Shown here piece by piece: positions 6,914-33,795 of a DNA stretch of 64,000 nucleotides. The position numbers and the translations under genes were made by a program. The stretch comes from Schmidtea polychroa (lineage: Eukaryota), in contig CM097887.1 in assembly GCA_044892525.1 (NCBI GenBank), positions 87,150,397 through 87,214,396 of the forward strand. Reading direction: 5' to 3'. Below the pieces are notes generated by a model. The model was given only the letters and a program-made list of their open reading frames with translations. It was not told where the DNA came from and searched no databases. Each line of letters opens with the position of its first letter. Position 1 is the first letter of the stretch.

Positions 6914-7052
6914 ATCTACAAAAATATACACATCATATTTCCTTTCGTCTTCTTTTTATTTTGAATTTTTGGTTTTTGTAATTTTTTATTTGGTTTTGGT
7001 TTTGGTTTTTTTTTTTTTTTTTTTTTTATTTACAGGCAACATCTCTCCTCGA

Positions 7053-8651: not shown

Positions 8652-8733
8652 TGTCTAAATAATTACACTATTACTACCACTATTATTTCATACATTTATT
8701 ATCTACACTTTATACACGGAATTTTAGTTTTTG

Positions 8734-9912
8734 TTATTGATCGGCGTAGCGAAATCCTTTGATTCCCTGCGCAATCCTCTGTCTGCACATCGGACATTCC
8801 TTTACTTTTCTACTACACGTGGCGCATGCGATCAAATGTCCGCATGGCATATGAATAACTTCTACACTCCTCTCCCAACACATAGTACATTTGATATCTC
8901 GTAAGATAGCTGTTTTGACCATTGATTCTTCTTTTATTTTTGTTTCTGGTTTTTCCCTATACTGAGTTATCGCTCTGATCATATCGTACGTTGTTGTTGA
9001 TATATGTACGTTTTTCTGTAGTCTCTCTCTAATCATTTTCTTTACCCTTGTCGTGCCTATTCCGGCTGCTTTCAACGCTCTGCGCATATTGGGCTTGTCT
9101 ACAACTTCGTCAACCTCTTCTTCTGTTACCAGTACTTCTGGATATTCGGTTTCTTGTTCGCTGCGATATAGGCACCATACTTGATGTCTAATTTCTGGTA
9201 TGCCTTCTTCCGGTAATCTCTGTTGGCTTTCGCACCTTTCACACTTGAGTATTTGCTTTTCTGTCAGGTAGAATCCTCTTATTGCTAGTTCAGGTCCTCT
9301 CGTATCATCTCCGAACGTTTTCATTCTATTATCTGCTATTTGCGTGAGGAATTCCCCTTCACAAGTTGGAACATACTCATCAACGATTTTGGTTATCGCG
9401 ATGCTCATTTTCCCTCCTTTTTCGTCTTCAGTTTTCAATTTCTCCAAGGCTTCGTATTTGATTTCCGGTTTGTTGTGTACATCAAATCCCAGTACGAATA
9501 GACAAGTTGGAAATCGTTTACGATGTTCCTCCTTTGGGTGTTCTCCTTTTTTCCATTCTACTAATTTCCCTTTACAGAAACGACACGTTACTTGATCGGG
9601 TATCTCTGGTTTTCCGGAGAAGAAAAATCCGTCGCGTGCTAGCGCTCGGCTCTGTTCCTTGGTGAAAATGGTCTGATGTTCAAATGACAGATATCTCTGG
9701 TTCTCACATCTGAATTGCTCATTATCTCCCAGTTTCAAATTTTCATGTACCAAATTATAATCATTTCCCATTCTTCGATAATACGCGTAACTACTTGGTT
9801 TTGTTTTGCTGACTTCCGCATCCTTCACTCTTTCTCTAGGTGACGTATTGTCCTCTTCCTCTCTCATTGTGATCGTTTTCTTTCGGATATTCGGTCTCTC
9901 TTGATTAATCAT
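8734..9912 (-). CDS. Inhibitor of apoptosis (IAP)-like protein: BIR, degenerate BIR, UBA-like, RING
   Basis: BIR motif GFFF..DQVTCRFC..W...H...FPTC; second CxxC..H..C; C-terminal RING CTMC..PCGH..CATC..CPMC. Confidence 0.9.
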   Translation of the reverse strand: MINQERPNIRKKTITMREEEDNTSPRERVKDAEVSKTKPSSYAYYRRMGNDYNLVHENLKLGDNEQFRCENQRYLSFEHQTIFTKEQSRALARDGFFFSGKPEIPDQVTCRFCKGKLVEWKKGEHPKEEHRKRFPTCLFVLGFDVHNKPEIKYEALEKLKTEDEKGGKMSIAITKIVDEYVPTCEGEFLTQIADNRMKTFGDDTRGPELAIRGFYLTEKQILKCERCESQQRLPEEGIPEIRHQVWCLYRSEQETEYPEVLVTEEEVDEVVDKPNMRRALKAAGIGTTRVKKMIRERLQKNVHISTTTYDMIRAITQYREKPETKIKEESMVKTAILRDIKCTMCWERSVEVIHMPCGHLIACATCSRKVKECPMCRQRIAQGIKGFRYADQ

Positions 9913-10052: not shown

Positions 10053-11477
10053 CTATCGTATTTCTATTGTTGGTCCTTCCTCGTCTAGTTCGATTAGGAA
10101 GAATATAGTGTCCTTTTCTATGTAGGACCCGTCATTAAACTGGTATAGCTGCATAAACTCTGCTACTCCTACCGCAGGATTAACCTCTGTAATCGGTTTA
10201 TTCCATGCTGGACTTGATGCTCGACAGCACATTATATGTGTCTTTTTTGATCCCAAGAGAGATATTTTTAATCTATGTCGGAATGGCCATGCTATTAGGT
10301 CGTCAAAATCTCCTTTACAGATTTGCATATATATGGCCATGCACCGATCTTTAAACTTTCCCTCACCATTTGGAAACCATCTCAATTTCATCTTTTATCC
10401 ATGTTTCTTGGCGTAGAATGGTTTGCTCACTATCGTTGTCTGGATTCCTTGCTTTGCTCGCTCCATTATTTCTGTTATTCCTTGGATTTTCCACATATAT
10501 GGCAATATTGGTAGTTCCTCTGTTGTCAGTTCCTTTGCAGTCCATTTGGTTTGTAGTTTAGTTACTTCGACTAATTTGTCGTCTAATTTCAACATCCTTT
10601 GTCTTACGGCTTCTCTCGTATTTTTGAAGCTTTCCTGTGAGCTCAGCATTTCTTTTATCATGATTTTATGTGATTTGAGTTCGTCTTTAACATCTTCGAT
10701 TGCCCTTGCTGTTAACTCTATTGCTCTCATCATCTTTTGCATGTGCTCGAATGTATTCTCCTCCACATGCTTCTTCATTTCTTCTGCTGGTAATTGTACT
10801 CTACAATCGAATGTTACCATTGGGCATTTTATCGTCTTTCTCGTGCATATCTCCCAATGTTCATTTAATCTGACGTTGTTAATTTCTCCACACTCGTTTG
10901 GGCATCTCCCTGTATATTCGTCGCAAATCCGTCTTTCTACTGCGTTTCGATGTTCCATTTCGATTTCTCTCCAATTAGCAGTTTCTCCGCAAAATTCGCA
11001 TTTTTCCGTTCGCGCTTCGCATTCCCCTTTATGTTTGGTTTTCTCTTTTCGTAAAAACTTTACCGTACATGCTTCGCATTCCAATTCTAGATATTCGCAT
11101 ACGTCTGTATGGGCTCTTAACTCCTTTACTCGACCTGTCCATTCGCATGACCTTTGGGTGCATCTTATTTTCACTTCTCTGATTTCTCGGTTCATTGCTC
11201 TATCCGGTATCGTGCCAGTGGGAACCAACTTAAATGCTTCTCCACATCCTGGACAAGTTTCTCGCTTTAGCTTGGCTAATCTTATAGCACACCCTCGGCA
11301 TAATCTACACCCGCATCGAGTTTGACTTGCTCCAATCAGTAGTCTTCTACATGCTGCATCGGCACATAATAGTCTCTCTTCGAACTCGTCCGGCTTGGCT
11401 TGATATTTTCTCATCAATTCATAGTTAATCTTTTGTTCCTCTGTTTCTCTCCGGTTCTCTTCCGCTTTGTTTTGCAT
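10053..11477 (-). pseudogene. TRAF-like adaptor/E3 (RING, TRAF Zn fingers, coiled coil, MATH) with one in-frame TAA at 10395-10397
   Basis: Reads PFYAKKHG*KMKLRWFPNG, where TRAFs have PFY...GYKM.LR..PNG; both halves are in the same frame; the MATH has the DDLIAWPF motif. Confidence 0.9.
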
Positions 11478-11566
11478 TCTACAATGATGACTTTTAATCT
11501 TGGGATTTCTACTTGGTTATAACTCTATTTATTTACAGGATTATTTACATTTCACTCCTTTCTCTC

Positions 11567-12170: not shown

Positions 12171-15100
12171 TTATACTAGTGTCGCCATGGGGCCGGAATG
12201 CAGCGTGCGCATTCCCCCATATCTTTCGTCCGTTAGTCGGTATATATCGACTTCGTGTGTCCATTCGTTAGGTGTGGGTATTTTTGGTAGTTCCGACATC
12301 CACAATCCGCTGGATTTGGGATCTCTTACCACCTCGTACTCTTCTAGATTCAGATTTTCTGTTGGAATACCGTATTCGAATTTTTCTACCTTGGGCCATT
12401 TTCTTCGGTTCCCGGGTTTTTGTTTACAGCTTTTGGTGGTTCTTATCCATTGGATCATTGCTAACGCTATTATCGTACTTACTATCGCGCTAGTTATCCA
12501 TATCATCTTTGTGATTATCGTTGTTCCATTATTTGCTTTTTCTGTCGTTAACATTATACTACCTGTGGTATTCGTTTCTGGTGCTTTGGTTTTCTTGAAA
12601 GCTTGATGTAGTCGTTCCTTCTCCTTCTCTGTTAGGTGACTGTGATTTTCTCGTTTCTCTCCCCCTTCTTGGTCTCGGGGTATCCATGGTATGTTTATTA
12701 ATTGGGCTTTTTGTCGAGTTATTGGTTGACATACGCTGGTTCCTCTTCCTTTCTTAAGGATACATACTTGGTATCGCTCTTTTCGTTTTCCTGTCTCCAT
12801 TTTAACGTCTGCACCTTGGTCTATCGGTGTTGTTGTACAGTCGATTATTCCCGTCTTATCCATTACACATATCCTTATGATTGGTTCTCCTTCTTGGTTT
12901 TTGACTGTAATTACCTCTTCACCTTTCTTGTTGAGGTTAATAGTTATCTGCACTTCCCGTCTTTCGTCTTTAATTACTTCGTTAATCCATGTTGTTGTTG
13001 TTATTAATTCGGTTTGATTTAGCTCTGTTGTTGTTTTTGTACTAACTGATTTCTTGGGCTTCTTGGTTGTTTTCTCCGTCAATGGACCTTGTTTAATTGC
13101 CATACTCCTTGGTTTGTCTTTTCTTGGTGCAGTTCTTGTTCCTTTACATACTATTATCCCTTGTGTTCCTGCGCATACCACAGTAGGGGTATTTGGTTTG
13201 ACCTCTCCCCAGAAGAATTTGTGATCCTGTGTCATATCAGTTACTATGCATATATCTCTGTCTTCTCTGATGCATACATGTGTAATTGATCGACTCCCTT
13301 TGTCCTCTATTTCGATATATTCTTCCAGAATGTTAAGTTGAAAATGTACTCCGGTTTCATTGGCTCTTTCTAGTTCCATTTCCTCTGTTGTTATGTCTAT
13401 ACAGATGTCATAATCTCCGCATAGCCCGGGGTCTCTTTTTTGGCTGCTAAAGATCTTTCCTTTTGTTATCGATCTGAAATCACAACTTACTCCTGTTCCT
13501 TCCATTAGTTGCACACATATTCCGACGGCGTTTCCGTCGTAATCGCTGACTTTTATCATAAATACTTCGCCTTCTTGGAAAGCTTCTCTTACGATTCTCA
13601 TATTTTTTGTTTCCGTTAAACAGATAGATGTTAATATTATAAATATTCTTTGTAGTAGGATTGGCTGGATTTGATTTCGAAACACTATGCTATGTAGTGG
13701 GGACTTTCGTTTTTTGTTTTCTGTTTTGTCGAATCCTTGATCTTCACCTCGACATTGGTCATCTTCGTCCTCTTCCAACTCCTCATCATCATCCGTTGTT
13801 TCTCCGCCCTCCGGATTTTGTTCTCTGTCGTTTTCCTCTGGGTTGTTATCGTTATCCCCCATCCTTTCGTCGTCGTCATCGTCGTCATTCCTCTCACCCG
13901 GGGTTTTCCCAAAAATGTCGTCCTCGACATTTGTCGCTTTGATCATCTCTTCGTATTTTTTAATTATTTCTTTTTTATCGTTGTGGATACTTTCTCGTTC
14001 TTCTTTGGTTCCTTGATATTTCCGTTGTTTCCGGTGCCATTCCCACACTAGTATTTCTAGTTGCTTTTTCATCGTATGTGCTTTTGTGCATTTCCACCAA
14101 TTACCTGTCAATTCTGCTCTATTTCTTTGTAATATTGCTTTAATGGTTTTTGGCATTGGTGGTCTTGAGTATATGGCGCTTCTTAGTACGATATTTTCGT
14201 TGTTCTGAAATTGATTTATATCAATTACTTCCGCTTTTAATTCGTTTTGTTTCCATTTGATTAACATTGCTGCGGTTCTGTCTAAGTTTCCTCTGATGGC
14301 TTCCAGAATTGTTTCAATGCTCTGTCTCAACACCTCAGCCTCTTCAGCGGTTGCATTTCCCGTGATAAAGTTTAGTATACTAGGTCTTTTTGACCTGACG
14401 GCATAACGTAAGATGGTTCGTTGTTTGTTATCTTTTTCTTTCAACGTGGATCCCGTTCTCAATAATTCTCTGAGTACTTCTCTTGACGCGCCTATTGCTA
14501 TGGCTTTCATCAGTGGAGTTTTTCCTTTACTGTTTTTGACGTTTGTTGATTGTTTGCAGTTTTCCATTATTCGTATAATCTCTAATGCTCGTTTTTCTTG
14601 TCCTGCTTTCACTGCATGATGGATTGGCCAGTTATTACTCAAATCACTTGTTAGGAACATGATTGGTAATCTCCGGATTAGTTCATATATTTGAGTCGGT
14701 ATTTGTAATCCTTCGGCATATCTTCGTCCTTTCGCATATCTTTCTGCTACTAACACTAGTTTGCCCAATACTTGGTATTTATTGGTTATATCGGCCCATT
14801 CTGGTACAATTTCTCGTGCTATTTTTACTGTCATATTCCATGTTGCTTGGCTCCTTGCCATTGCGTCAGCTTCGCTTTCTGCTTCGGTTCCTTTATGGGC
14901 GCTGCTGCTTGTTTCTCCCCTCAACATGAATATCCGTCTTGTCTGTGATCTAGTTAATCTACCGCTTACTTCTGGTTCCGTTGTGGCATTTGTTTGTGAT
15001 CTCGTGATTATCTTCCTTGTTTCTGGGTCTTTAGTGGCAGTTTTCGCTACTGCTTTACATCGACATGTATTAACGTAAATGGGTCTAATTAGTGGGTTGT

Positions 15101-16151
15101 TAACCAACTTTACTCTAGCGTTGTTCTCGTTTACATAAATGATTTCATATGGCCCTCTGCCATTACGTTGTAATTTCTTTGCTGTTCCTGGGATTAATTC
15201 GGGTGTTTCTATAATAACCCAATCTCCGACTTTAAATTGATGGTTTTGCACGTTCTTCTTTTTATCATGCAATTCCTTATAACTTTCTTGGTTGAATCGG
15301 ATGTTCATCCCTGCGGTTTTCCATATTTCTTGCATTCTCTCTTTGAACTTTGTCACATAATCATCTATCTCCATATATTGTGAGATTGGCGGTTGGTATT
15401 CGAGATCCATTGGCATGTTGCATTCCCTTCCGTACATGAGTTTAAACGGACTCATTTTCGTTGCTGAGTGTATTGACATTCGGTAAGCCATTAGGCACAA
15501 CTTAATATATTCATCCCAATCCTTTTGATGTTTACTTACATAATTGGACATCATGTCTATTAGTATGCCGTTAAACCTTTCTGTCTGCCCATTCGTTTGC
15601 GGGTGGTATGGCGAGGTTCTCAATTTGGCAATTCTGAAGTAGTTTGTTACTTCATTTATTATCTCGCTCATGAAGTTAGTTCCTTGGTCTGTTAAGATTT
15701 GTTTTGGAGTTCCATACCTGCAGCAGATCTCTTCTACTAATATCCTTGCAACCGTTCGTGCTTTTTGGTCTGGCATCGCAAATGCTTCAGGGAACTTAGT
15801 CAGATAATCAGTTATTACCAATATATACACATTTCCACTGTTAGTCTCTGGTAGTGGTCCAACTACATCCATTGCAATCATTGTCATCGGTTCTGGCGGT
15901 ATCGGCATTGGTTTCAATGGCGGCTTTAGTTTACTGCCCGTTGTTTTTCTGGTTGCGCATATCAAGCAGTTCTTTATCCATTCTTTCACGTCATCGCTCA
16001 TATTTGGCCAGTAATATTTCTGTTTGAGCCTTGCTTCTGTTTTCTTGGCTGACATATGTCCGCCCAATTTACCGTCGTGGTATTGAATCATAATTTCTTT
16101 CCGTCTACTTTCTGGTAGACACATCAGTCGTTTGTCGCCATCCATTACCAA
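12171..16151 (-). CDS. pol: Polyprotein C-terminal part: integrase, ankyrin repeats, acidic linker, second type I membrane protein
   Basis: HHCC zinc motif, D-D(35)E core (AMDVVG, TDQGTNF, QTERFNG), GPY, KGKTPLMKA ankyrins, TM near the C-terminus; joins the upstream ORF across an A8 run at ~16186-16193. Confidence 0.92.
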   Translation of the reverse strand: MVMDGDKRLMCLPESRRKEIMIQYHDGKLGGHMSAKKTEARLKQKYYWPNMSDDVKEWIKNCLICATRKTTGSKLKPPLKPMPIPPEPMTMIAMDVVGPLPETNSGNVYILVITDYLTKFPEAFAMPDQKARTVARILVEEICCRYGTPKQILTDQGTNFMSEIINEVTNYFRIAKLRTSPYHPQTNGQTERFNGILIDMMSNYVSKHQKDWDEYIKLCLMAYRMSIHSATKMSPFKLMYGRECNMPMDLEYQPPISQYMEIDDYVTKFKERMQEIWKTAGMNIRFNQESYKELHDKKKNVQNHQFKVGDWVIIETPELIPGTAKKLQRNGRGPYEIIYVNENNARVKLVNNPLIRPIYVNTCRCKAVAKTATKDPETRKIITRSQTNATTEPEVSGRLTRSQTRRIFMLRGETSSSAHKGTEAESEADAMARSQATWNMTVKIAREIVPEWADITNKYQVLGKLVLVAERYAKGRRYAEGLQIPTQIYELIRRLPIMFLTSDLSNNWPIHHAVKAGQEKRALEIIRIMENCKQSTNVKNSKGKTPLMKAIAIGASREVLRELLRTGSTLKEKDNKQRTILRYAVRSKRPSILNFITGNATAEEAEVLRQSIETILEAIRGNLDRTAAMLIKWKQNELKAEVIDINQFQNNENIVLRSAIYSRPPMPKTIKAILQRNRAELTGNWWKCTKAHTMKKQLEILVWEWHRKQRKYQGTKEERESIHNDKKEIIKKYEEMIKATNVEDDIFGKTPGERNDDDDDDERMGDNDNNPEENDREQNPEGGETTDDDEELEEDEDDQCRGEDQGFDKTENKKRKSPLHSIVFRNQIQPILLQRIFIILTSICLTETKNMRIVREAFQEGEVFMIKVSDYDGNAVGICVQLMEGTGVSCDFRSITKGKIFSSQKRDPGLCGDYDICIDITTEEMELERANETGVHFQLNILEEYIEIEDKGSRSITHVCIREDRDICIVTDMTQDHKFFWGEVKPNTPTVVCAGTQGIIVCKGTRTAPRKDKPRSMAIKQGPLTEKTTKKPKKSVSTKTTTELNQTELITTTTWINEVIKDERREVQITINLNKKGEEVITVKNQEGEPIIRICVMDKTGIIDCTTTPIDQGADVKMETGKRKERYQVCILKKGRGTSVCQPITRQKAQLINIPWIPRDQEGGEKRENHSHLTEKEKERLHQAFKKTKAPETNTTGSIMLTTEKANNGTTIITKMIWITSAIVSTIIALAMIQWIRTTKSCKQKPGNRRKWPKVEKFEYGIPTENLNLEEYEVVRDPKSSGLWMSELPKIPTPNEWTHEVDIYRLTDERYGGMRTLHSGPMATLV
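14355..14640 (-). other. About 3 ankyrin repeats
   Basis: NNWPIHHAV, KNSKGKTPLMKAI, KDNKQRTILRYAV. Confidence 0.8.
15030..16100 (-). other. Integrase domain
   Basis: H-H-CxxC, DDE, GPY motif. Confidence 0.95.
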
Positions 16152-19100
16152 TAGCCATTCTTTCTCGATTGTATATCTTTGACGATTTTTTTTCCATATG
16201 TTCTTTCAATCGATCATCGTTGTTGAATATTTTCATATCGTTTTTATCCAGGAATTCGATTATTAGTTTCAATTCGCTGTCTTCCTTTTGTTCGTTCTTT
16301 AGATTGGTAAAATCGATATCTTCCGCGATTATCATGCATATTCGCCTGACGTCATGATCCATGAGTTCTTCAAATACGAATCTCGACATGCAATCCGCAT
16401 TTGCGTTTGCTTTTCCTGACTTGAACTTGATGTATGGGGAATATTCTTGTAATTGCATTGCCCATCTCATTAATCGACTAGATGCTTCTTTATGTTGGCC
16501 CAACCAAACTAGAGGTTGATGGTCCGTAGTAATAATTATCTCGTGTCCCCATAATAAATATTTGAAATGTTTTATCGCCTGAATTATTGCTAAGGCTTCT
16601 CTTTCTGTGACCGAGTAATTCTTCTCGTGTTTTTTGAACGTCTTGCTATAATATCCGATGACTCTTTCTCGTTTCTCCTCATCCCATTGTCCTAGCACAG
16701 CTCCTGATGCATATCCACTTGCATCGGTTGCTAATAGAAAGGGCTTCTTGAAATCTGGATGTATTAAGATAGGTGAGGCTATTAACTTGTCTCTTAGCGA
16801 CTCGAACGCTATTTGCTGTTCTCTATCCCACAGAAATGGAGTGTCTTTTTTCGTTAGTTCCTGAATTGGTTTTGCTATAGTTGCATAATTTTTGATGAAC
16901 TTGCGGTAGTATCCGCATAATCCCAGAAATTCTTGTACTTGAGTCACGGTCTTCGTTATCGGACAATTCTTTATCTTTTCAACATTTCTCGGATCTGGTT
17001 CCTTTCCTTTTGCCGACACAATATGTCCTAAAAATGTGACTCTCTCCTTTGCCCAATCGCATTTTGACGGTTTCAATTTCAGCTTCCATTGTTTCAGTCT
17101 CACGAATACGTTCCTGATGTCGATTAAGTGTTGTTCGAACGTACCTGAATATATTAGCAGATCATCAATATACACCATACATTGTTTAATTCCGTGTGTC
17201 ACAAAGTTCATACACCTTTGAAACGAAGCAGCTGCGTTTGTTAATCCAAATGGCATCTTTTTAAACTGATATAAATCTTTTCCTATGGTAAAGGCTGTCT
17301 TTTCTCGGTCTTCTTCTTTAACTTTAATTTGCCAGTATCCGCTCTTTAGATCTAAAGATGTAAAGTATGCTGCTCCATGCAACATCTGTAACATTTCGTT
17401 TATGTCTGGCAGTGGATATGTATCCCTTTTTGTTACTGCGTTCAACCTCCGATAATCAATACAAAATCTCTGTGTACCGTCTTTCTTTTTGACCATTACT
17501 ACTGGGAATTGCCATGGTGAACAGCTAGGTTCTATTACTCCGGCATCTAACATCTTTTGTACTTCTTCCTCTGCTACCGTTTTTTGTGCTTCGGCTAATC
17601 GATATGGTCTTAACGTTATGGGTGTCTCATCTGTTAATGGTATAATGTGTTGAGTTACATCGCTAGTACCCAAATCCAAATCTGAAGCCGCAAAAATATT
17701 TTTAAATTCAATCAGTAGTTGTCGGAGTTGTTCCTTTTCGTCTTCATTTAGGAGTTCGCTATCGATGGTCCATAATTCTTTTTCGTCTGCTCCCTCGCTT
17801 TTTATCTCCGGCAGCTCAATGTTCATCATTGGTGTGAGTTTTCCAAGTCTCTCGTTTTCGTAGATTACTTTATCTTCCTCATCAAAATTGGTGATGTTGA
17901 TGGGTATCTCGTTATCCTCATTTATACTGACAATTTCTCTTGCCAATGGCAGCTCCCTTCTCTTCTCGAATTTTTGACTTGGTTCAAATATCATATCTCC
18001 TTTGGCTTCGTTATCGACCTTGACATAACATATTGTCTGGGTACGTGCTGGTATTATCATTTTTTCGGAGCATCTCACTTCTGTTCTCATTGTGCATATC
18101 TGTCCAGTTTTATCTTTTAATTTCATGGAACTCAAATCAATCACAATTTCTTTCAATAATTCCGGCATTACATCTGTTCCAATTATACATGATACGCTTA
18201 GCTGTCTAATGACTGCGAGGTACGTTGTAACTTTAACCCCTTTGTATTCGATCGTTGACCATACTCTTCCTACTACCGCTATGGATTGTTTGCTGCATGT
18301 TATTACATCCATGGTTGTTTCCTCAATGCATGGCCATAGTCTTCCTGGTAGCATATTCATATTTATTGCTGAGATATTTGCTCCGGTATCAATCATTGCA
18401 TCCATCTCTATTCCGTTTACTTCGACCGTGATAGTTAATGATGGTCCTGCTGGTGTCTGCAATACCGCGATCGTTCGTGTCTCCACCTCTTGCCCCACAT
18501 TTTTAACTGGCTTGATCATTGTTGGGTCCAGTGCTGCCCAATTTGGTTCATAAGCCATTGGATAAATATTCGGTACGGGTAATCTTCCGGTTCCCATTCT
18601 TATCCGTTCTCTCATTGTTCCTGGTCGTCGCATTGGTCCATTAGTTGGTGCCTGTAAATATGGTGATCCCCATGGTTTCATTTTTTCGTTTTCCCAAGTG
18701 GCTGTATTTTTGTTTATCAACATTACTCCTCCTTGATTATTATCGTCGTCGTCGAAATCATCATTGTCATCACTATCATCGTCTCGTCTGAGATTCATCC
18801 ACTTTTTCCACTTCCCGGTTCTTTTCGCTTTCTCTTGAGTTCTTTCTGCTTCTAATCTCATTATCACTTTGAACTTACGTCCGACTTCTTCGTCTGTTCC
18901 TTTCATTTGCGTTAATATTTTCAACAATCTTTTTATTCGATGAATATCCTTTGAGTGTCCATGCAACACCATTGTTTTCGCTAAGAACGGTAAGAATCCA
19001 ATTGCAAGTTTCCAATTTACTTTTCTCTCGCGCTTATAGATGTCAAAACATGCTAGCATCTGAGTTAGTATCACTCTAACTATTTGTATTATCAGAATAA

Positions 19101-22100
19101 TTCCGAGTATTCCTGCCATCATTTGGCCAAATACTAAAAATCTACCGCACATAGCCTTCATCATGTTTGCTGTTGCTTGTTGGTAGTGACTTGGTGATAA
19201 TAATAGCTCGTAGTTCGGGCTCTCCCCATAATTATTTCCTCCAGAAATAGTCACTATATTTGATAAGATTGCTTGTCTTTGCGCTGGGAATAACAGGTGG
19301 GCTCTTGCTGATTCGAGATCTTTTGGTGTATATAATCCACTCTGGGATACGTCTATCGGCTTGAACTCTAGTTCTGTTGTTAGTTCCGTCAATCCAAATT
19401 TCTTGGGTGTTACTACGATTGTTTTACTTGGGAATTGAACCCATTGTCCATCTTCTTTTTCATACATTGGTCCATATGCATTACTACAATTAAACAGATT
19501 TGGTTGAAACCCTACCGGGTTCATTACCCTAGTGACTGCTTGCACAAACCTGGGTTTACCTTCGTGAATAATTTCGAGTTCGTTTGCACACTTATCTCTT
19601 GGTATTGTAGGGTTTTCTGGCAATCTTGCCATTATCTTTTTGCATTGGTAGGTGTACATCACTTCGCCCACGATTCGTCCGAAATATCCTTCCTGTAATG
19701 GTAGTAACGGAATTGCGTTATCTGGATTTGTAATCGCCATTGCTAATTTTGTTCTCAGTATTTCTTTGTTGAGCAGGCAATCGTTTCTTAACAGGTCATG
19801 GTAGACTTTTTCCGTGGATGTTAATCCTCTGTGATATAAGAAATCCATCTTATTATTAGCGTATAAATATAGTTTGACATCCTTTTCGCTTAGTCTTCCG
19901 ACTGCATTTGCTAGGGTTCTCCGCGACAAGTAGATCCCTTTATAATTGGTGCTGATCACCATCTCATCGCATTTACTCACCATTTTGTTCTTTATGAACC
20001 TCATTCCTATTCCATCGTCTTTGGAGATTATCGCTGTGGGTGTTACTTCCGATTCCAATTTCGATGTTATTACGTCTTCTCTGAATCCTTTCCTTGCTCT
20101 CAACTCTTCCATCGCTCGTTTTTCTGCTTCTCCTTTTGGTTCACTGTATACTTTCCCTTGGATTTCTTCGAATATTGCTGTTTTGAGTAACATTAGTCGA
20201 CATACTTTCTGATCCGCATGGTATACCAGAGTTGACATCCCGGTTGAACATGATCGATCTGATGCGAGACAACTTGGGTATTTCTTCATTGCTTGCGTGT
20301 CAGGGTCGAAATAACCTTGGTACCTTTCTAATTTAGCTTCGTAGCTTTCTATTACAACCACTCCACTAACCAGTTGTCCGTTCAAGGTGTATGTTCCTGT
20401 CTCACATGTTCCGTCTCCTTTAGTGATTCTGCCTGCCGTATACACGCGAGTTGTTTTTATTTTTCCTGGTTCTGCAGCAATTTCAATCCCTTGCCTTAAG
20501 TGGATTCTCCCCGATCGGAATCCTTCCTCGCATTCCCCTCTTGATAGTAATATTACTGTCGATTCCAATCCCGGTTCTATGATTGTTGAGTGGGAGGATG
20601 AACCGCAGTGATGTGCAAATATCTTTCTGGTTACCGTACATTCTTGGACCATGGTTTTGATGAAATCTGCTTCTTGATATACGTTATACGAGACTGATGC
20701 CATGACCGTTTGTAATTTTCTTGGGTTTGCTGCTTTACAGTCTTCCGTATCCTTTAATGAATATTTCTCATGGATTTTTATGTTGTCGCAGTCGTATACT
20801 GCAAATGACTCCGTTCCTTTGATACACATCATCCATATCAGTATCGTGGTTATTATGGCGTTCATTCCCTTTCGGCTTGCTCTTGGGTCGTTCATATTGA
20901 TTGTTCCTTCGAATTCCGTTAGCAAATCGCGTAACTTTGCTTGCATCATTTCCGTTTGATCTTTCTTCCCAGTTGATTCGATGAAGTTTCTCCATCCCCC
21001 TTGTTCAAGTATATATGGTTCTATTGATCGTTTGATTATTTCTGTTACTGTGAATTCATAACCAGTTGCGTTATATTTTGGCATTCGTTTTTTATATTGA
21101 CCAATGACGTTATACATCAAATATGCTAATCCCACTAAATATCGATTTTGGTCCTCTGATCTGCTTAACAGATGTTCCACAATTAATCTGAGTTCCACGG
21201 GATCCTTTAACGTTAATCGAATTTTGTTATCCATGATTTTCATTATTATCGGTTTCAATACCGCCCATAATTGTTTGGCTTCGGTCGGGATATGATCCTT
21301 CCTCATTACTCTTTTCACATCTGGATTTGCTAACGCTAACATGTTAGCAAATAAGTCGTTTATCCATCGTGTCCCTTGTTCCCGGACGTTTGTTTTCACT
21401 TTGACTTGTTTTACTAATGCGCTTAGTTTATCCATTTTAGTTTTTACCTGTTCCATTTGTGCTTGAATTTTGGATTTTGGTTCCACCTCTGCTTTATCTG
21501 TTTTTGGTCTTCCTCTTGTTCGTCGATCCATAGCCGTTCCGGTTTCTTTCCGTTTTGGCGGATTGTAAGTTGTATCTTTTGACGTGGTCGCTCTTGGATC
21601 TACTCTCCAGTTACTCCATTCATCGGTTGTGGTTACATCTTTATTGGCACTTCCTCCCACATTATCTAAATCCGTCTCGGCTTCTGTTGTTTCCACTGGT
21701 TGTCTTTGCGCACATACAAATCCATTTAGATCATCAGTTGTTGGTTCACCTTCGTCGATAAATAGATCTCCCGATTGCGATGCTCTCATAATCTCGCCTG
21801 CTTCTACTATCTCTTGTAATTCGTCCAGTATTTCGTCTTCTCCTGTTGTTTCGATCGTCACTTCACTAACCGCATTCGGAACTTCTGGTGTGTCTAAACT
21901 TCCTGGTTGTTGTGTAGATGATTTGTGCTTTATTTCTCTTCTCCTTAATTCTCTCCCTGCAATTTTACTCACCGTTAATCTGTTCACAATTTCTCCTTGG
22001 AGTGGTGTCACACCAATTTCGATATCGTCGTCTAATGATCGTCCCTCGTGTTGTAAGTGGAATGGGAGTTCATAAGGTATTCTCTTTTTAACTTCCCTGA

Positions 22101-25100
22101 CCTTGGCTGTTGTGTAGAATTCCTTTTCCATTGGTTCAAAATCTGGCAAGAATATTTTTAGTTGATATTTCTCAGGTGAGTTTTCGGCCCACTCTTGTTG
22201 TTTCCATTTCCGGATGATTTCACCAAACTGTTCAGGGTACCATACGTATACCCGTCGATATTCTTCAATCGCTTTAACGATTTTTCGTAGGTTTTGAATC
22301 CTTTTGCATGATTCGGCTATCCATTTTGCTAGTTCTACTACCGCTCGTCGACGATTTTTCGCACCGTTTTGTAATATCTCCATCAATTCCTTACATTTTT
22401 GTGCTTCCAACAATGTTGCTGCTTCCTCCTCATCTGCGTCGGCGTCTATTGGTAGATGTCCTGAATCAGGCACTCTTCTCCTCATCATACAGATTCTCGG
22501 TTGATTTTCTGGTATGTTCAGTCGTTGGTTCATTTCTTGTTCTGTTTCAACTTCTACTCTGATCTGGATAGCATTGTCTTTCACAAATATTGATTGTTCA
22601 TTCTCAATGTAATTTAGACGTATTAATTTAGACGTCCCAGAGGCGATATTTTCTAATGTTGTTGGTCGTTGGTAGCAGGTGCTTCTTGGGTCTGGTTTCA
22701 TTGTTTCTTTATGTACGTTAAGGTTATCTTTCAGTGGTTCGATCGCTATCGTTACCTTTCTGCTAAACGGCCATGGTACCTTATCGTCATAATTCCCTTT
22801 GCAGATGATGAAGAATGCCGACACATAATTTCCTTTTCCTACCCCATCTCCGTTCGGGTATATTCGCAATTTCATTTTGTACTCACCTAATCCTGAGTAG
22901 AACGGTGGACTTACTAATCGTGTGATTTTCTCTTCCCTTGCTGATTTTATCTTTTCCATCCAATTCTCAATTTTCCACGTGAATGGTGCTAACCTTACCG
23001 GTTCTCGTATATCCTCATCTTCTCCTGATTGTAACTCATTTTGGAATTCTTGTGGTAATATATCCTGGTAGGTATCGATTGGTTTCTCTCTTACCCATAC
23101 TGCTGCGATCTCTTCGGGTATATTATCTATCCAATTTGGTTCCAACTTTTGCTGCTCCCAATCCCATCGAGCTTCACTTTCGATCCACACTTTTTTCCAT
23201 GGTATCAGTTTGCAATCTTCGTCATTGAAGGCTGCTACTTTTAGTTTATCATCCTTTAGCCAATGGTTATAAATATCTATTATTCGATCCATCTTTGCTC
23301 TCATCCCCCATTGGAATCTTTTAATTTGTTGCTCTGTTTTGGTGGCGTTTTTGTGTCCACCCGATGGTTCATCCATCGCGATTATATTGATGACGGCTCC
23401 ATCTTCCCAGATTCCTAGTTCGTAAATTACAGTTCGGTCTCCTCTTTCTAACATATGCCGGTTGTACATTATTATCACATCTTCGATCATTCCATCCTCA
23501 CTATTTTCTCGAGCTTTTTGGATGATCTCTTGATCTATGATTTGCACTAACTCGTCAACTTGGCAATCGGGGTCAACTTCTATTATTTGTTTCTCTTCAT
23601 TTGGCAACTTCACCTTTATTTTTATCGTTTCTCGTTCGCATTTGGTTCTCTCGTATTCTCCGTATTTAGATATCAATTCTGTCGCTCGTTTATCTTCGAA
23701 TCTCATAATTTCCGTGTCTCGTACGTCTTTGACAAATTGTTTCATTAGTTGTGGCCATCTTTCTCTCAGTCTATTAATATATTTTCTTGCCTGATCGATA
23801 GCTTGTTTAACCAAGATTATTTGGTTTTCTTTCATTATTTTTCGTTCGATCTTTTCCAATTCTGGTTCCACTTCATTGTTAAACACTTGTTGGATTTTCT
23901 GGAACATTTCTGCCACTGATTCGTCGTCTCTGGTTTTCTCTAAGGTTAAGATGTTAGTTTCGTTTGGCCCTATCATCGCATCTACCAAATGTATGCCCAT
24001 TTTAAATTTGTAACCATCGACATATAATTGTTTATTTTTATGGCTCGTTCCCATTTTTTCCTGTACCCAGTTGTACAGTTCATCGGTATTTGTTCCTTTT
24101 AATTCAATAGTCTGTATCTGAATCTCTGGGTGTTGAATACTTACTTGATATTGATCTGGGCCTGCTTCCTTTAGTTTCTCTTTATATTTTGTTGCTAAAT
24201 CTTTCCATGCTGCCGTTATTATACCTCCTTCACACTGGTATACTTGAGTTATAAGTTTTACGCATTTTCTATATGTTAACTCGTTGATGTAGCTCTCATT
24301 CCGCTCTATTTCTGTTACTGTGTCGAAAATTTCCTCAAATATCTCCTCATCATCTTTTTCTATCATTGATTTCATGTCATCATTTTCACTCTCATCGCTA
24401 CTTTGAGGTGTTTCACTGTTTGGAGGTGTTTTCGGTTCGTTGTTTTCCTCACTTGACTGAAATAATTCGCCTCCCAGGCTACTCACCTCACTTTTCTCAT
24501 CTTCCTGATCCGTCTGATCACTCCGCATTTGTCTCAACATGTTTATTTTAGCTTTGGTATGTGGTTCTTTCTTTTCGAACCACTCATTTTTCCTGAACCA
24601 ATGCTCTTTCACTTTTTCTTTAATTTGTTCCTCAGTTAATGTAGGGTTTTCGTTTTTGATTCTGTCTTCGATTTTTTGTAGTAGTACCCTCTGAATTCGA
24701 TTTTTTGTAACTATCTCATTGCTTTTTGGTTCGTCTTTACCCTCATCTCTTTTTTGTCTTTTTTCTTTCTCCTCTTGGGTAAATTCTTTAATCAATTGTA
24801 TTTTCTCTTCACTGCTTAATTCTGTTCGTTGGTCAATCTCTTTTTCTTTTGTTATTTTTATCTCCTGGTTTATTATCAGATCACTCCCTTCGTTGTTAAC
24901 ACACTGCTCCGCAGTGTGCGATTCCTCTTTATTTGTTAACCTCATCATATTTATTCTTCCGGGATTCGCTTCCCGTTGTTTCCATCTTTCTTGAATTTCT
25001 CTGGCTTCTTCGTTTTGTAATCTTTGCCATTCGATTCGTTGTTGGTCTTGTTGTTGCTTACTTGGTTGTTTCCGGATTTCTTCGGTGCTCTGCATCATGT

Positions 25101-25335
25101 TGATTCGTTGTTGTTGATTATTAGTCGGTATTCGCTGGATCATATCTTTTAATTGTTCGATTTCCTGCATGAGGTTGATTTGTGTGTTCCGTATTGGATT
25201 GTTTGATCCTGGTTGGTTTGGTTTGGCTCTCATCGTGCATTCTCTTGCCATGTGTCCAGGCTGGTTACAATTGTAGGCATCGTGGGACCTCTGCAGATGT
25301 TTTCCGTGTGGCCTCTTCTCCCACACTTTTGACAC
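16105..25335 (-). CDS. pol: 3076-aa polyprotein: Zn knuckle, coiled coils, UBLs, MATH, Bcl-2-like, Env, PR, RT, RNase H
   Basis: Uninterrupted ORF; IDTGA, YIDD, LATDASG...EREALA...TTDH...ADCMSR. Confidence 0.95.
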   Translation of the reverse strand: MSKVWEKRPHGKHLQRSHDAYNCNQPGHMARECTMRAKPNQPGSNNPIRNTQINLMQEIEQLKDMIQRIPTNNQQQRINMMQSTEEIRKQPSKQQQDQQRIEWQRLQNEEAREIQERWKQREANPGRINMMRLTNKEESHTAEQCVNNEGSDLIINQEIKITKEKEIDQRTELSSEEKIQLIKEFTQEEKEKRQKRDEGKDEPKSNEIVTKNRIQRVLLQKIEDRIKNENPTLTEEQIKEKVKEHWFRKNEWFEKKEPHTKAKINMLRQMRSDQTDQEDEKSEVSSLGGELFQSSEENNEPKTPPNSETPQSSDESENDDMKSMIEKDDEEIFEEIFDTVTEIERNESYINELTYRKCVKLITQVYQCEGGIITAAWKDLATKYKEKLKEAGPDQYQVSIQHPEIQIQTIELKGTNTDELYNWVQEKMGTSHKNKQLYVDGYKFKMGIHLVDAMIGPNETNILTLEKTRDDESVAEMFQKIQQVFNNEVEPELEKIERKIMKENQIILVKQAIDQARKYINRLRERWPQLMKQFVKDVRDTEIMRFEDKRATELISKYGEYERTKCERETIKIKVKLPNEEKQIIEVDPDCQVDELVQIIDQEIIQKARENSEDGMIEDVIIMYNRHMLERGDRTVIYELGIWEDGAVINIIAMDEPSGGHKNATKTEQQIKRFQWGMRAKMDRIIDIYNHWLKDDKLKVAAFNDEDCKLIPWKKVWIESEARWDWEQQKLEPNWIDNIPEEIAAVWVREKPIDTYQDILPQEFQNELQSGEDEDIREPVRLAPFTWKIENWMEKIKSAREEKITRLVSPPFYSGLGEYKMKLRIYPNGDGVGKGNYVSAFFIICKGNYDDKVPWPFSRKVTIAIEPLKDNLNVHKETMKPDPRSTCYQRPTTLENIASGTSKLIRLNYIENEQSIFVKDNAIQIRVEVETEQEMNQRLNIPENQPRICMMRRRVPDSGHLPIDADADEEEAATLLEAQKCKELMEILQNGAKNRRRAVVELAKWIAESCKRIQNLRKIVKAIEEYRRVYVWYPEQFGEIIRKWKQQEWAENSPEKYQLKIFLPDFEPMEKEFYTTAKVREVKKRIPYELPFHLQHEGRSLDDDIEIGVTPLQGEIVNRLTVSKIAGRELRRREIKHKSSTQQPGSLDTPEVPNAVSEVTIETTGEDEILDELQEIVEAGEIMRASQSGDLFIDEGEPTTDDLNGFVCAQRQPVETTEAETDLDNVGGSANKDVTTTDEWSNWRVDPRATTSKDTTYNPPKRKETGTAMDRRTRGRPKTDKAEVEPKSKIQAQMEQVKTKMDKLSALVKQVKVKTNVREQGTRWINDLFANMLALANPDVKRVMRKDHIPTEAKQLWAVLKPIIMKIMDNKIRLTLKDPVELRLIVEHLLSRSEDQNRYLVGLAYLMYNVIGQYKKRMPKYNATGYEFTVTEIIKRSIEPYILEQGGWRNFIESTGKKDQTEMMQAKLRDLLTEFEGTINMNDPRASRKGMNAIITTILIWMMCIKGTESFAVYDCDNIKIHEKYSLKDTEDCKAANPRKLQTVMASVSYNVYQEADFIKTMVQECTVTRKIFAHHCGSSSHSTIIEPGLESTVILLSRGECEEGFRSGRIHLRQGIEIAAEPGKIKTTRVYTAGRITKGDGTCETGTYTLNGQLVSGVVVIESYEAKLERYQGYFDPDTQAMKKYPSCLASDRSCSTGMSTLVYHADQKVCRLMLLKTAIFEEIQGKVYSEPKGEAEKRAMEELRARKGFREDVITSKLESEVTPTAIISKDDGIGMRFIKNKMVSKCDEMVISTNYKGIYLSRRTLANAVGRLSEKDVKLYLYANNKMDFLYHRGLTSTEKVYHDLLRNDCLLNKEILRTKLAMAITNPDNAIPLLPLQEGYFGRIVGEVMYTYQCKKIMARLPENPTIPRDKCANELEIIHEGKPRFVQAVTRVMNPVGFQPNLFNCSNAYGPMYEKEDGQWVQFPSKTIVVTPKKFGLTELTTELEFKPIDVSQSGLYTPKDLESARAHLLFPAQRQAILSNIVTISGGNNYGESPNYELLLSPSHYQQATANMMKAMCGRFLVFGQMMAGILGIILIIQIVRVILTQMLACFDIYKRERKVNWKLAIGFLPFLAKTMVLHGHSKDIHRIKRLLKILTQMKGTDEEVGRKFKVIMRLEAERTQEKAKRTGKWKKWMNLRRDDDSDDNDDFDDDDNNQGGVMLINKNTATWENEKMKPWGSPYLQAPTNGPMRRPGTMRERIRMGTGRLPVPNIYPMAYEPNWAALDPTMIKPVKNVGQEVETRTIAVLQTPAGPSLTITVEVNGIEMDAMIDTGANISAINMNMLPGRLWPCIEETTMDVITCSKQSIAVVGRVWSTIEYKGVKVTTYLAVIRQLSVSCIIGTDVMPELLKEIVIDLSSMKLKDKTGQICTMRTEVRCSEKMIIPARTQTICYVKVDNEAKGDMIFEPSQKFEKRRELPLAREIVSINEDNEIPINITNFDEEDKVIYENERLGKLTPMMNIELPEIKSEGADEKELWTIDSELLNEDEKEQLRQLLIEFKNIFAASDLDLGTSDVTQHIIPLTDETPITLRPYRLAEAQKTVAEEEVQKMLDAGVIEPSCSPWQFPVVMVKKKDGTQRFCIDYRRLNAVTKRDTYPLPDINEMLQMLHGAAYFTSLDLKSGYWQIKVKEEDREKTAFTIGKDLYQFKKMPFGLTNAAASFQRCMNFVTHGIKQCMVYIDDLLIYSGTFEQHLIDIRNVFVRLKQWKLKLKPSKCDWAKERVTFLGHIVSAKGKEPDPRNVEKIKNCPITKTVTQVQEFLGLCGYYRKFIKNYATIAKPIQELTKKDTPFLWDREQQIAFESLRDKLIASPILIHPDFKKPFLLATDASGYASGAVLGQWDEEKRERVIGYYSKTFKKHEKNYSVTEREALAIIQAIKHFKYLLWGHEIIITTDHQPLVWLGQHKEASSRLMRWAMQLQEYSPYIKFKSGKANANADCMSRFVFEELMDHDVRRICMIIAEDIDFTNLKNEQKEDSELKLIIEFLDKNDMKIFNNDDRLKEHMEKKSSKIYNRERMAIGNGWRQTTDVSTRK
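16380..17700 (-). other. Reverse transcriptase and RNase H
   Basis: RFCIDYRRLN, LDLKSGYWQ, MPFGL, YIDD, TDAS. Confidence 0.97.
18110..18450 (-). other. Aspartic protease
   Basis: AMIDTGANIS ... IIGTDVM. Confidence 0.92.
18960..20805 (-). other. env: Envelope fusion glycoprotein, chuvirus/Monjiviricetes-like (class III)
   Basis: Signal-like segment, then FAVYDC..YSL..C, many conserved-looking Cys, GYFGRIVGEVMYTYQC, SGLYT, C-terminal TM segments. Confidence 0.8.
20975..21440 (-). other. Bcl-2-like domain
   Basis: BH2-like IEPYILEQGGWRNFIE; weaker BH1-like LIVEHLL..DQNRYLVGLAYL; helical. Confidence 0.6.
22548..22985 (-). other. TRAF-type MATH domain
   Basis: FTWKIENW..SPPFYS..YKMKLRIYPNGDG..YVS.F..CKG.YDD.VPWPF. 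Confidence 0.9.
23380..24150 (-). other. Two ubiquitin-like domains (23380-23625 and 23940-24150); a weaker third at 21975-22168
   Basis: IKIKVKLPNEEKQIIEVDPDCQVDEL...IMYNRHMLE and TIELKGTNTDELYNWVQEKMG...QLYVDG follow the ubiquitin pattern. Confidence 0.55.
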
Positions 25336-26345
25336 ATCCTTGCTCTATAACATTCATTGCTCCAATGCCCTGATCGTTGGCATATGTTGCACGTTCGATT
25401 GTCGTTGTTCCTGAAATTATTAGTGAAATTTTGAATATTACCTCCATTGTCTTGGTTTCTCGTTTGTGGGGTTTTGAACAACTGTTGCGATCCTGGGATG
25501 AATTGATTCATTACTGGATTTGCATTATTGACTTGGTTGTTTGTGGTTGTTGTTGTTGTTGCTGGAGCTGCTGGAGCTGCTGTCATTGCTGCTACTTGTA
25601 TTGGTGTTAGGTAAGTTTCACATTTGTTGGCTATTTTTAGTGCTTCTTCTAGCGTCTCTGGTGCTCGACATCCCAAGGTTGCTCGTATATCTTCTCGTTT
25701 CATGCCATCTACGAATACGGCTATTATCTTGTCTTCCGGAACTGGCTGATTTGAATCGAAGGCTTCTCGTGCTAGTCGTCTCAATTCGCATGCGTACAGT
25801 GCGTTGGATTCGTTATATTTCTGCTTTCGATGCAGAAAGTCTAACATTTTTCGATTTCCCTCTTTTTCGGTACCGAATGTTTTTATTAAAAACTCCTTGA
25901 TCTCTTTCCACGTTCTCAACTTTGTTGCATCACATTTCGCCTCCAAGTATACATCTTGGGCGCTTCCCTTTAGATATAGGGGTATTCGTTCTCGTACGAC
26001 TATGTCTGGCCAGTGACATATCGTAATGTATACTTCAAATTCTTTTATAAATGTTTCTAGCTGGTTTATATTTCCATCGAATGGCTCTCCTCGAAATTTC
26101 TCTCTGAATTCTCCAATGTTGACGTGCACATTACTTGTTTCCGGTGGGTCCGTTACCCTTTGTTCATTCGTGTTTCCGTCCGACATTATCTCTTGGCACA
26201 GTACGGTTATCTCTGTTGTCTCGGATATATTTTCCTCTTCTTCAGTTGATTCGACGTCGCTTATTGGATCTAATTCGGTTCGTTTGAAATCGTCGCTGTT
26301 CTCAAATTCGTTAGTTAAACTGTCTGATTCAAATACTGTTTCCAC
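25230..26345 (-). CDS. gag: Gag (capsid plus two CCHC knuckles); true start uncertain
   Basis: PFDGN...FIKEFE...LYLKGSAQDVY capsid motif; CNICQRSGHWSNEC and CQKCGRRGHTENIC. Confidence 0.92.
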   Translation of the reverse strand: METVFESDSLTNEFENSDDFKRTELDPISDVESTEEEENISETTEITVLCQEIMSDGNTNEQRVTDPPETSNVHVNIGEFREKFRGEPFDGNINQLETFIKEFEVYITICHWPDIVVRERIPLYLKGSAQDVYLEAKCDATKLRTWKEIKEFLIKTFGTEKEGNRKMLDFLHRKQKYNESNALYACELRRLAREAFDSNQPVPEDKIIAVFVDGMKREDIRATLGCRAPETLEEALKIANKCETYLTPIQVAAMTAAPAAPATTTTTTNNQVNNANPVMNQFIPGSQQLFKTPQTRNQDNGGNIQNFTNNFRNNDNRTCNICQRSGHWSNECYRARMCQKCGRRGHTENICRGPTMPTIVTSLDTWQENAR

Positions 26346-27264
26346 TGATGCTTGTTTCTTGTGTAGTTTTCTGTTTTTCTTGGCTCTTTCTATCTCTTCC
26401 TTTTCTAATAAACTGAGGTTTCCTTTACTTTTTCGTCTGGTTCGGCTAGCTATATTATCAATTTTTCCTCCTTTTAATATCCTTTGATAAATTTTCTACT
26501 TCGTCGATCGAGCTTGATGTTTCTAATTATTGTCTTGCTTTACTCTTTGCGATTCTCTAATTCCTCTTGGGTTTGGTTTCTTTAATTCTTCGCTTTTGAT
26601 TGATTTCTTTATATCTCTTGCTTTCTATTACTTTCTCGATTTCTTTGATTTCTTTCTGAATTGTTTGCTTTATTCTAAAATAATTAACACCTCTAGTACA
26701 TATCATAAATTCTCTTTATTAAACCCTTCATTTACTTCCCATTTTCCCTTTATTTTACTGTTCCTTCGCTTCAAATTTCTAACTTTTCTACACTTCTCGT
26801 TATTCGCCCCATTTTGACTTTAAGTTGATTTTAAATTATCTATAACTCGTATCAATTATCTATATAGTCGTATCAATTATCTATCCCTTTTATAATCATC
26901 ATAGAAATATAATATCAATCACATAAATATCAAAATAAACATATCATTAATAAATAAAATTCAATAATTCAACTACTATCTATTCGTTCGCTTTTCCCCA
27001 TCCAAAGACTGGTCTCATTTTTACTTGCGCCGGCGCTCTATCATAATTTCCCTTTACTTATTACATATTTAACGCACTTAATCTATTTCAATTTAATCAA
27101 TTCCATAGTTAATCATCAATGCTTTGGTTCGCGCGACCTCTGCATCTACCTTTATTTACCATCGACTCCCTGACCGGTTCAATCAACTCTCCTATTTCAT
27201 TTAAATCATTTCACTCAATTACCATCGGCTCCCTGGCCGGTTTAATCAACTCATTTTAATCTCA

Positions 27265-33762: not shown

Positions 33763-33795
<33 letters not shown>

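Follow-up and report, generated by a model that had tools for sequence, protein, structure and literature searches.

The locus analyzed here raises the question of how an envelope glycoprotein (Env) encoded in the middle of a retrotransposon polyprotein would be made and brought to a membrane. The window, a stretch of 64,000 nucleotides from Schmidtea polychroa, carries on its minus strand a giant, young, and multicopy Ty3/gypsy element of 36.25 kb. The reading we regard as quite probable is that its Burro-type envelope domain is a predicted class III fusogen that shares the frame of one polyprotein of ~4,700 amino acids (aa) with Gag-linked cargo before it and the protease (PR) after it. An internal signal likely threads this fusogen into the endoplasmic reticulum (ER), and host signal peptidase and the element's own protease likely cut it free.

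A preliminary description of this DNA had presented the arrangement as novel, on the premise that env always forms a separate open reading frame (ORF) 3' of integrase. That premise is contradicted by the Burro elements of planarians, for which an env lying in frame between gag and pol was described in 2019 (Arkhipova and Yushenova, PMC6431247, citing Jurka, 2007, and Grohme et al., 2018, for Burro/GYPSM1), and by GAG-ENV-POL elements with a gB-type env in three phyla, flatworm, nematode, and bryozoan (Chary and Hayashi, eLife 2026, PMC13524379). The in-frame layout is real and is already published for planarian Burro elements.

A Burro-type element and its reading frame

Burro-type elements exceed 30 kb and have multi-kb long terminal repeats (LTRs), and the window element, with LTRs of 5.3-5.5 kb, TG...CA ends, and a 4-bp target-site duplication, is built accordingly. 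Its 5' LTR occupies 30215..35682 (all features given here are on the minus strand), with the duplication coming next on the plus strand, while its 3' LTR covers 1..4719 and starts 569 bases ahead of the window; the two are 99.0-99.8% identical over three blocks, or about 99.5%. No tRNA gene was found within the 64-kb window. Between the LTRs, Pfam matches place the gypsy enzymes in the Burro-type order PR-RT-RH-IN, preceded by env and accompanied by MATH, ankyrin, and BIR cargo. Specifically, an accessory ORF with a RING finger (28995..29477; zf-C3HC4_3, E 9e-12) lies upstream of gag, and is followed by the Gag capsid and zinc knuckles (25230..26495; Retrotrans_gag, Ty3_capsid, zf-CCHC), a MATH/TRAF-C domain within the polyprotein (22549..22983; E 1.5e-28), and a weakly matched BCL2-like domain (20965..21357) that ends ~35 aa upstream of the env signal. 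Past env are an aspartyl protease with a DTG motif (18157..18432), reverse transcriptase and RNase H (16441..17493), integrase (15546..16115), and ankyrin repeats (14361..14624; Ank_2, E 3e-8), and then accessory ORFs with TRAF-type zinc fingers (10395..11516) and with IAP-like BIR and RING domains (8734..9912), both by Pfam. Three more accessory ORFs lie at 5075..8654, for which the Pfam scan gave no confident family; two are coiled-coil-like, and 5075-6088 has a signal and a transmembrane (TM) segment by eye. In all, ~1,450 aa of cargo (MATH, ubiquitin-like, BCL2-like) separates Gag from env. A BCL2-like domain has been described in Burro (PMC6431247); here, all 26 PDB matches of the stretch are Bcl-xL, yet at E values of only 1-2.2, and the homologous stretch of relative P0007 matches Pfam Bcl-2 at E 1e-3, under the Pfam cut-off.

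Within a stop-to-stop frame of 3,079 aa (16105-25344), the env segment (18958-20868) takes up aa 1493-2129. Pfam domains follow along this frame in the order zf-CCHC (24-37), MATH (788-932), Monjiviricetes_fusion, aspartyl protease (2305-2396), RT (2618-2776), and RNase H (2839-2968). The position of env inside a polyprotein upstream of PR, as first described, is borne out by this order and frame. The further claim that env is in frame between Gag and protease is confirmed with a qualification: env shares its frame with PR, RT, and RNase H in the window copy and with Gag in sister copies, but the Gag frame of the window copy is broken. The capsid domain (25608-26084) and integrase (15546-16115) of this copy lie outside the env frame, with two breaks, near 25230-25344 and near 16105-16205, which may reflect mutation or assembly error. 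Burro-type elements have a single Gag-to-IN ORF of ~4,800-5,100 aa, and in the present family 32 of the 78 genomic copies scored have env within a stop-to-stop frame of at least 4,700 aa. With coordinates paired by eye, at least 27 of these 32 join env to a Gag match, and at least 16 join env to both Gag and the C-terminal ectodomain. The env match is free of stops in 77 of the 78 copies, and 11 sister copies differ from the window env by 15-20 synonymous and 2 non-synonymous codons. Since the loci had been ranked on their protein scores, this synonymous excess carries a bias.

In arthropods, endogenous viral elements (EVEs) derived from chuvirus glycoprotein (G) are frequent near LTR fragments (10.1101/2022.06.22.497255), and a passive chuvirus insertion, or an assembly artefact, might likewise have come to lie in frame by chance. 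Against this, env holds the same position in the 78 copies scored, as well as in relatives that share 28-45% identity, and the frame is intact. Moreover, in an unrooted FastTree env tree of 120 rows (31 of 151 were left out by length), the polyprotein-embedded envs form one branch of 14 rows with SH-like support of 96. On the strength of this shared position and single branch the insertion or artefact reading was rejected as having next to no chance of being correct. In the same unrooted tree the embedded-env branch stands apart from Tacheng tick virus 4 G, and P0057, a BEL/Pao-type row with DUF5641 followed by env, falls far from it. A protease domain follows env in the same protein in 13 of 24 relatives scanned. 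Some relatives carry several protease domains, an arrangement of which the literature searched gave no account.

Assignment of the envelope to class III

The env segment matches Monjiviricetes_fusion (PF24664) with E 5e-69 alone and E 3e-66 within the whole frame, scoring 233 bits against a cut-off of 27. When compared with the PDB as a single sequence, env returned one chance match only (E 1.4); a profile of 104 relatives returned herpesvirus gB exclusively (38/38 among the matches listed, best E 0.0033). Among the matches listed, this restriction to gB favours class III over an F-type (class I) Env. Consistent with the profile result, and independent of it, an AlphaFold (AF2) model of env (pLDDT 89.9, pTM 0.70) has the gB-type overall fold with a long central helix of 48 residues. 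The preliminary description had called env chuvirus-like and class III, with a fold check against chuvirus G and herpes gB in view, and Foldseek matched the predicted model to both: to chuvirus G with E 2e-38 and TM-scores up to 0.62, and to gB with E 5.6e-14 and TM-scores of 0.18-0.41. A VIA comparison of the model gave Z 10.9 and an rmsd of 8.7 Å over 422 residues, the PDB matches listed again being gB. Taken together, family, profile, and predicted structure indicate that the assignment to a class III fusogen fold holds, and the model confirms the Burro env as class III by predicted fold rather than gypsy F-type, the relationship drawn in the Burro review (PMC6431247).

Several known systems share parts of this picture. 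Chuvirus (Monjiviricetes) G and herpesvirus gB resemble the window env in PF24664 membership and predicted class III fold, at about 18-21% and 10-13% identity, respectively, but are stand-alone proteins with an N-terminal signal, whereas the window env is embedded. Anakin is likewise an LTR element with a chuvirus-type glycoprotein, although it belongs to BEL/Pao and not to Ty3/gypsy (Dezordi et al., 2020, PMC7642597). Also similar are Smed_errantivirus_1-6 and kin, in which a gB-type env, modeled as AF2 trimers, also lies upstream of pol with its ectodomain between a signal and a TM (PMC13524379). By eye, the window env agrees with the Smed_errantivirus_6 row at 35 of the 50 residues with which their alignment begins; the window element is a diverged relative and not the same sequence. 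That article speaks of ORF order, and the terms 'polyprotein', 'in-frame', 'single ORF', and 'fused' were not found in its main text.

Membrane topology and processing of the polyprotein

Env topology was called from simple hydropathy. The two strongest hydrophobic stretches of the 3,079-aa frame, aa 1497-1508 (signal-like) and 2075-2093 (TM), flank an ectodomain of ~560 aa. Accordingly, env is divided into a predicted internal signal (20806..20868), a fusogen ectodomain of gB/chuvirus G type with a membrane-proximal helix (19123..20805; Pfam, profile, model, and fold matches), and a TM helix (19066..19122; Kyte-Doolittle (KD) value 2.53), the last two features also being visible in the model. 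The glycoprotein of ~615 aa with its own signal and TM that was first described is thereby recovered: 18960..20866 spans 636 aa including the signal, and ~615 aa is the part after it. The ectodomain is full-length, with conserved cysteines and only one N-glycosylation sequon. Among relatives, the TM of P0011 is visible in hydropathy, and a hydrophobic signal precedes env in all 16 rows that hold the env N-terminus (21 rows were examined, of which 5 begin inside env; two rows come from one cluster). By eye, only some 5 of 15 rows have a methionine shortly before the hydrophobic core, and so the signal is internal in most.

Two features bear on which side of the membrane the downstream enzymes face. 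Firstly, a conserved, proline-kinked helix past the TM (18964..19020), helix-break-helix in the model, is moderately hydrophobic (KD 1.28; 0.26-1.71 in relatives). Were this helix to span the membrane, PR would end up on the luminal side, which counts against threading; the helix is likely membrane-associated and not a second pass. Secondly, a positive-inside bias is clear in the window env (five K/R after and two before) and not clear across relatives. From hydropathy and conservation, we infer that the data are best read as ER threading of Env while Gag and Pol stay in the cytosol.

On this reading, one genomic RNA would yield Gag-cargo-Env-PR-RT-RH-IN-Ank followed by a second membrane protein. 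The segment at aa ~1494-1513 would act as an internal signal bringing the ectodomain into the lumen, where disulfides would form, and signal peptidase would free the Env N-terminus directly ahead of a conserved 'YDC' motif. The TM at 2075-2093 would stop transfer, such that PR, RT, and IN remain cytosolic, and PR would cut the cytosolic parts, probably at repeated [RKQ]-I-[NC]-[ML]-[MLI] sites, also separating itself from the Env tail. There are six occurrences of this candidate motif in the 3,079-aa frame; they fall at domain borders and none is in the env ectodomain, and around PR there are only looser variants. A shuffle test returned 0/2,000, a value that overstates significance because the motif was defined from the same sequence. 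The spent signal, left on the upstream fragment, would anchor the BCL2-like domain to a membrane, much as the capsid anchor of flaviviruses does. Flavivirus polyproteins combine an internal signal, a luminal glycoprotein, and cytosolic enzymes with processing by host and viral proteases; the likeness would be one of analogous processing and not of homology, and the window element differs in having a class III rather than a class II protein and in being reverse-transcribing. Finally, Env trimers on budding particles would fuse with the membrane of another cell, and the element would thereby move between cells.

The fixed Env:Pol stoichiometry first described, and with it equal amounts of newly made Gag, Env, and Pol, would follow from the single frame only in the absence of spliced or internally initiated RNA. 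Env or Env-Pol might instead come from such an RNA, or env might be spliced out for Gag-Pol, in which case the single frame would be the genome layout and not the main product, and ratios would not be fixed. In the window copy the signal begins right at an AUG (20865) whose context is good, which would allow a separate start and counts against a single product; in addition, a single frame yields no Gag excess over Pol, and a huge excess is the rule among LTR elements. We nevertheless consider this alternative improbable. A methionine near the signal is uncommon among relatives, as noted above, a simple pattern search of the 600 nt upstream found no pyrimidine-rich acceptor-like site, an env RNA would read on into Pol since no stop follows env, and purifying maintenance has kept one long frame in many copies. 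Contigs of presumed-RNA runs span both env borders and show no env-skipping joint among those listed (at least two, short and upstream of env); contigs of this kind do not represent transcripts and miss rare forms, and so give no verdict on splicing.

The fusogen might also serve something other than enveloped particles, namely cell-cell fusion or transfer at the cell surface or internal membranes, or host manipulation beside the BCL2, BIR, TRAF, and MATH cargo. The many apoptosis- and ubiquitin-related domains of the element fit such a role, and the literature examined holds no report of particles. Against it, the full-length ectodomain with conserved cysteines, membrane-proximal helix, TM, and tail is like those of viral class III proteins, and the compact relative P0012 has Gag-env-PR without cargo. 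A role outside enveloped particles appears more doubtful still.

A second membrane protein and the biology of the family

The polyprotein ends in a second predicted signal, a cysteine-containing, beta-rich ectodomain, and a TM (12450..13670; hydropathy and model). By hydropathy, a signal-ectodomain-TM unit after integrase is present in the window and in three of four long relatives reaching there (P0002, P0005, P0157); P0015 has a signal after integrase with an unclear anchor. For the second ectodomain, searches returned no Pfam family, no Atlas match, and no longer homologue among 2,984 candidates, and the C-terminal units of P0002, P0005, and P0015 are not detectably similar to it. Its single-sequence model is poor (pLDDT 46.7, with one beta domain of ~90 aa at about 75) and has no Foldseek match at E 0.001. 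A bolder and distinctly tentative proposal is that Burro-type elements might be enveloped viruses that enter cells with two glycoproteins, both cut from a single polyprotein with four ER crossings. One would be the conserved class III fusogen ahead of PR; the other, a rapidly exchanged membrane protein for attachment or immune modulation, would occupy the usual env slot after integrase. The spent env signal would double as tail anchor of a BCL2-like anti-apoptotic protein.

Cleavage motifs, the topology of signal and TM, and a second membrane protein past integrase are not described in section 7 of the Burro review (PMC6431247), and the literature searched gave no account of an ER-threading model for such elements, of a second signal-ectodomain-anchor unit after integrase, or of a repeated candidate protease site. 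With the window element, a known group gains a young member of high copy number. It raises the questions of how a retroelement would assemble particles if a membrane-threaded polyprotein supplied Gag, Env, and Pol in equal numbers, and whether elements of this kind pass between the somatic and stem cells of a regenerating animal. Now that the predicted signal and anchor of Env, the candidate protease sites, and the second membrane protein have been mapped, these questions of particle and transfer are directly testable.

Structure and genomic copies of the element

The element is a Ty3/gypsy LTR element of 36.25 kb on the minus strand. One of its LTRs spans 30215-35682; the other starts outside the window, 569 bases ahead of it, and reaches 4719. 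Both end in TG...CA. Their sequence identity of 99.0-99.8% over three blocks, together with the 4-bp duplication on the flanks, marks the insertion as young. The long leader between the 5' LTR and gag holds a 132-bp tandem repeat (2.4 copies, 27265-27582). Outside the element, at 38524-45291 (+), are Polinton/Maverick-like fragments matching a double jelly roll capsid, an A32-like ATPase and a type B DNA polymerase, and a Tc1-like transposase fragment is located within the same region (40111-40776, -).

The env segment (18958-20868, -) corresponds to aa 1493-2129 of a 3,079-aa frame (16105-25344, -), along which Pfam domains occur in the order zinc knuckle, MATH, Monjiviricetes_fusion (the env segment; E 5e-69), aspartyl protease, reverse transcriptase (RT) and RNase H (RH). 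The strongest hydrophobic stretches of this frame by hydropathy are a signal-like stretch at aa 1497-1508 and a transmembrane (TM) stretch at aa 2075-2093. Domain order and hydropathy thus bear out the preliminary description, which had placed an env with its own signal and TM in frame upstream of the protease (PR). The capsid and integrase (IN) of this copy lie in frames different from that of env. Among 78 genomic copies scored out of 2,708 env candidates, the env match is free of stops in 77, and a reading of env as a passive insertion is scarcely credible. A frame of at least 4,700 aa surrounds env in 32 of the 78; with coordinates matched by eye, that frame also contains a Gag match in at least 27 of the 32, and both Gag and the C-terminal ectodomain in at least 16 of the 32. 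Since the long env frames of sister copies hold both ends in this way, the element family possesses a single Gag-cargo-Env-PR-RT-RH-IN-ankyrin-membrane protein frame for which no frameshift is needed.

Predicted fold, relatives and precedents

A PDB search with a profile of 104 relatives returned herpesvirus gB alone among the matches listed (38/38, best E 0.0033). The AlphaFold2 model of env (pLDDT 89.9) contains a central helix of 48 residues, and in Foldseek searches the leading match was chuvirus G for viral models (E 2e-38, TM-scores reaching 0.62) and gB for solved structures (E 5.6e-14, TM-scores 0.18-0.41); a VIA structural comparison gave Z 10.9 with an rmsd of 8.7 A over 422 residues. 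Together, profile matches and model comparisons provide good support for env as a predicted class III fusogen, and the earlier class III proposal, including its suggested fold comparison with chuvirus G and gB, holds on the predicted model.

A library search with env yielded 954 matches at E 0.001, the best 150 of which supplied the details of relatives. The nearest relatives among the matches listed are polyproteins (28-45% identity), and 13 of 24 relatives scanned carry a protease domain downstream of env in the same chain; one, P0012, is a compact Gag-env-PR protein. An unrooted FastTree was built from 120 env segments, after 31 of an initial 151 had been excluded by length; in it the 14 polyprotein-embedded envs form one branch (SH-like 96), and both the G protein of Tacheng tick virus 4 and a BEL/Pao-type env fall outside that branch. 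Two to six aspartyl-protease-like domains per polyprotein are seen in relatives P0001, P0002, P0004, P0006, P0009, P0012 and P0157, the last (4,844 aa) having six DTG/DSG motifs, two of them downstream of integrase. The Burro-like env-pol polyprotein P0005 was deposited under Flavobacteriaceae, as a hypothetical protein from a genome bin, and its source is probably a mis-binned animal contig.

The env is real and, by its predicted fold, class III, and this kind of element is already known from published work. The ORF1 of Burro, a giant planarian Ty3/gypsy element, is 4,873 aa long and places env after BCL2 and before PR; this env matches mononegavirus glycoproteins and was described as the first to lie in frame between gag and pol (Arkhipova and Yushenova, 2019; PMC6431247); that report ties Burro env to gypsy Env, whereas the env studied here is class III by predicted fold. 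A gB-type env in GAG-ENV-POL order is reported from Nematoda, Bryozoa and Platyhelminthes, including six Schmidtea mediterranea elements (Chary and Hayashi, 2026; PMC13524379), and the env of one of these, Smed_errantivirus_6, matches the present env by eye at 35 positions among the first 50 of the alignment. Anakin, a BEL/Pao element with a chuvirus-type glycoprotein, was described by Dezordi et al. (PMC7642597), and BURRO1 RNA is reported in somatic cells under SMEDWI-2 knockdown (PMC8532177). Among the papers listed in our literature search, none treats the threading of the Burro polyprotein into the ER, its protease sites or a second membrane protein, although the text, figures and supplements of earlier reports may hold topology or the second protein.

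Predicted second membrane protein and cargo

At the end of the polyprotein, after the ankyrins and in the usual env slot, lies a second predicted signal followed by a Cys-containing, beta-rich ectodomain and a TM (12450-13670, -). This unit is laid out likewise in relatives P0002, P0005 and P0157, and in P0015 with a doubtful anchor. The second ectodomain showed no similarity to the C-terminal ectodomains of the three relatives compared (P0002, P0005 and P0015), two of which look fibronectin-III-like by eye, and family and fold searches with it gave no match. An accessory ORF (5075-6088, -), in which a signal peptide, Cys-rich N-terminal part, coiled region and TM are recognized by eye, constitutes a third predicted membrane protein, for which family searches returned no confident family.

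Pfam identifies a RING ORF upstream of gag (28995-29477, -), and a TRAF-type zinc-finger ORF and an IAP-like BIR-RING ORF downstream of the polyprotein (8734-11516, -). Given these ORFs and the MATH domain of the polyprotein, the element carries, as judged from sequence, the parts of a TRAF-IAP set. Ubiquitin-like stretches flank MATH at ~21900-22140 and 23365-23622 (-), the upstream one a weak Pfam match (E 0.026) and the other recognized by eye.

Proposed topology, processing and spread

Of 21 rows surveyed for the signal, five begin within env; the remaining 16, all with an env N-terminus, show a hydrophobic core, then small residues, then a YDC/FDC motif ahead of env. Because a Met stands a short way ahead of the core in only ~5 of 15 rows (by eye), the env signal is predicted to be internal in the majority of rows; in this copy an AUG is present shortly ahead of the core. 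The ectodomain is followed by one strong TM and a conserved proline-kinked helix (Kyte-Doolittle-type hydropathy score, KD, 0.26-1.71), which we infer to be membrane-associated and not a second pass, since a second pass would place PR, RT and IN in the lumen. As a weakly supported BCL2-like domain ends ~35 aa upstream of the env signal, the spent signal could serve as its tail anchor. A viral polyprotein with four membrane passes, two glycoproteins and a signal-anchored BCL2-like protein is a tentative picture, and one we doubt more than we favor.

The motif [RKQ]I[NC][ML][MLI], a pattern picked after the sequence was seen, occurs six times in the 3,079-aa frame, at domain borders (25182, 25107, 24957, 24549, 22497 and 16344, -): four sites are downstream of the zinc knuckles, one after MATH and one after RNase H. 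Looser variants flank PR, and a scan of the frame found no occurrence in the env ectodomain. These repeats are candidate PR cleavage sites.

Expression of env from a spliced or internally started RNA, in place of one polyprotein RNA, is judged unlikely, and less likely still is use of the fusogen for something other than particles. In contigs of presumed RNA runs, none of the joints listed skips env, though such contigs cannot in themselves decide splicing. The probable course is that a single RNA would be translated into a single polyprotein entering the ER co-translationally at the internal env signal, that signal peptidase would free the Env N-end while PR would cut its cytosolic tail, that Gag and Pol would remain cytosolic, and that particles bearing the putatively fusogenic Env would carry the element from cell to cell.
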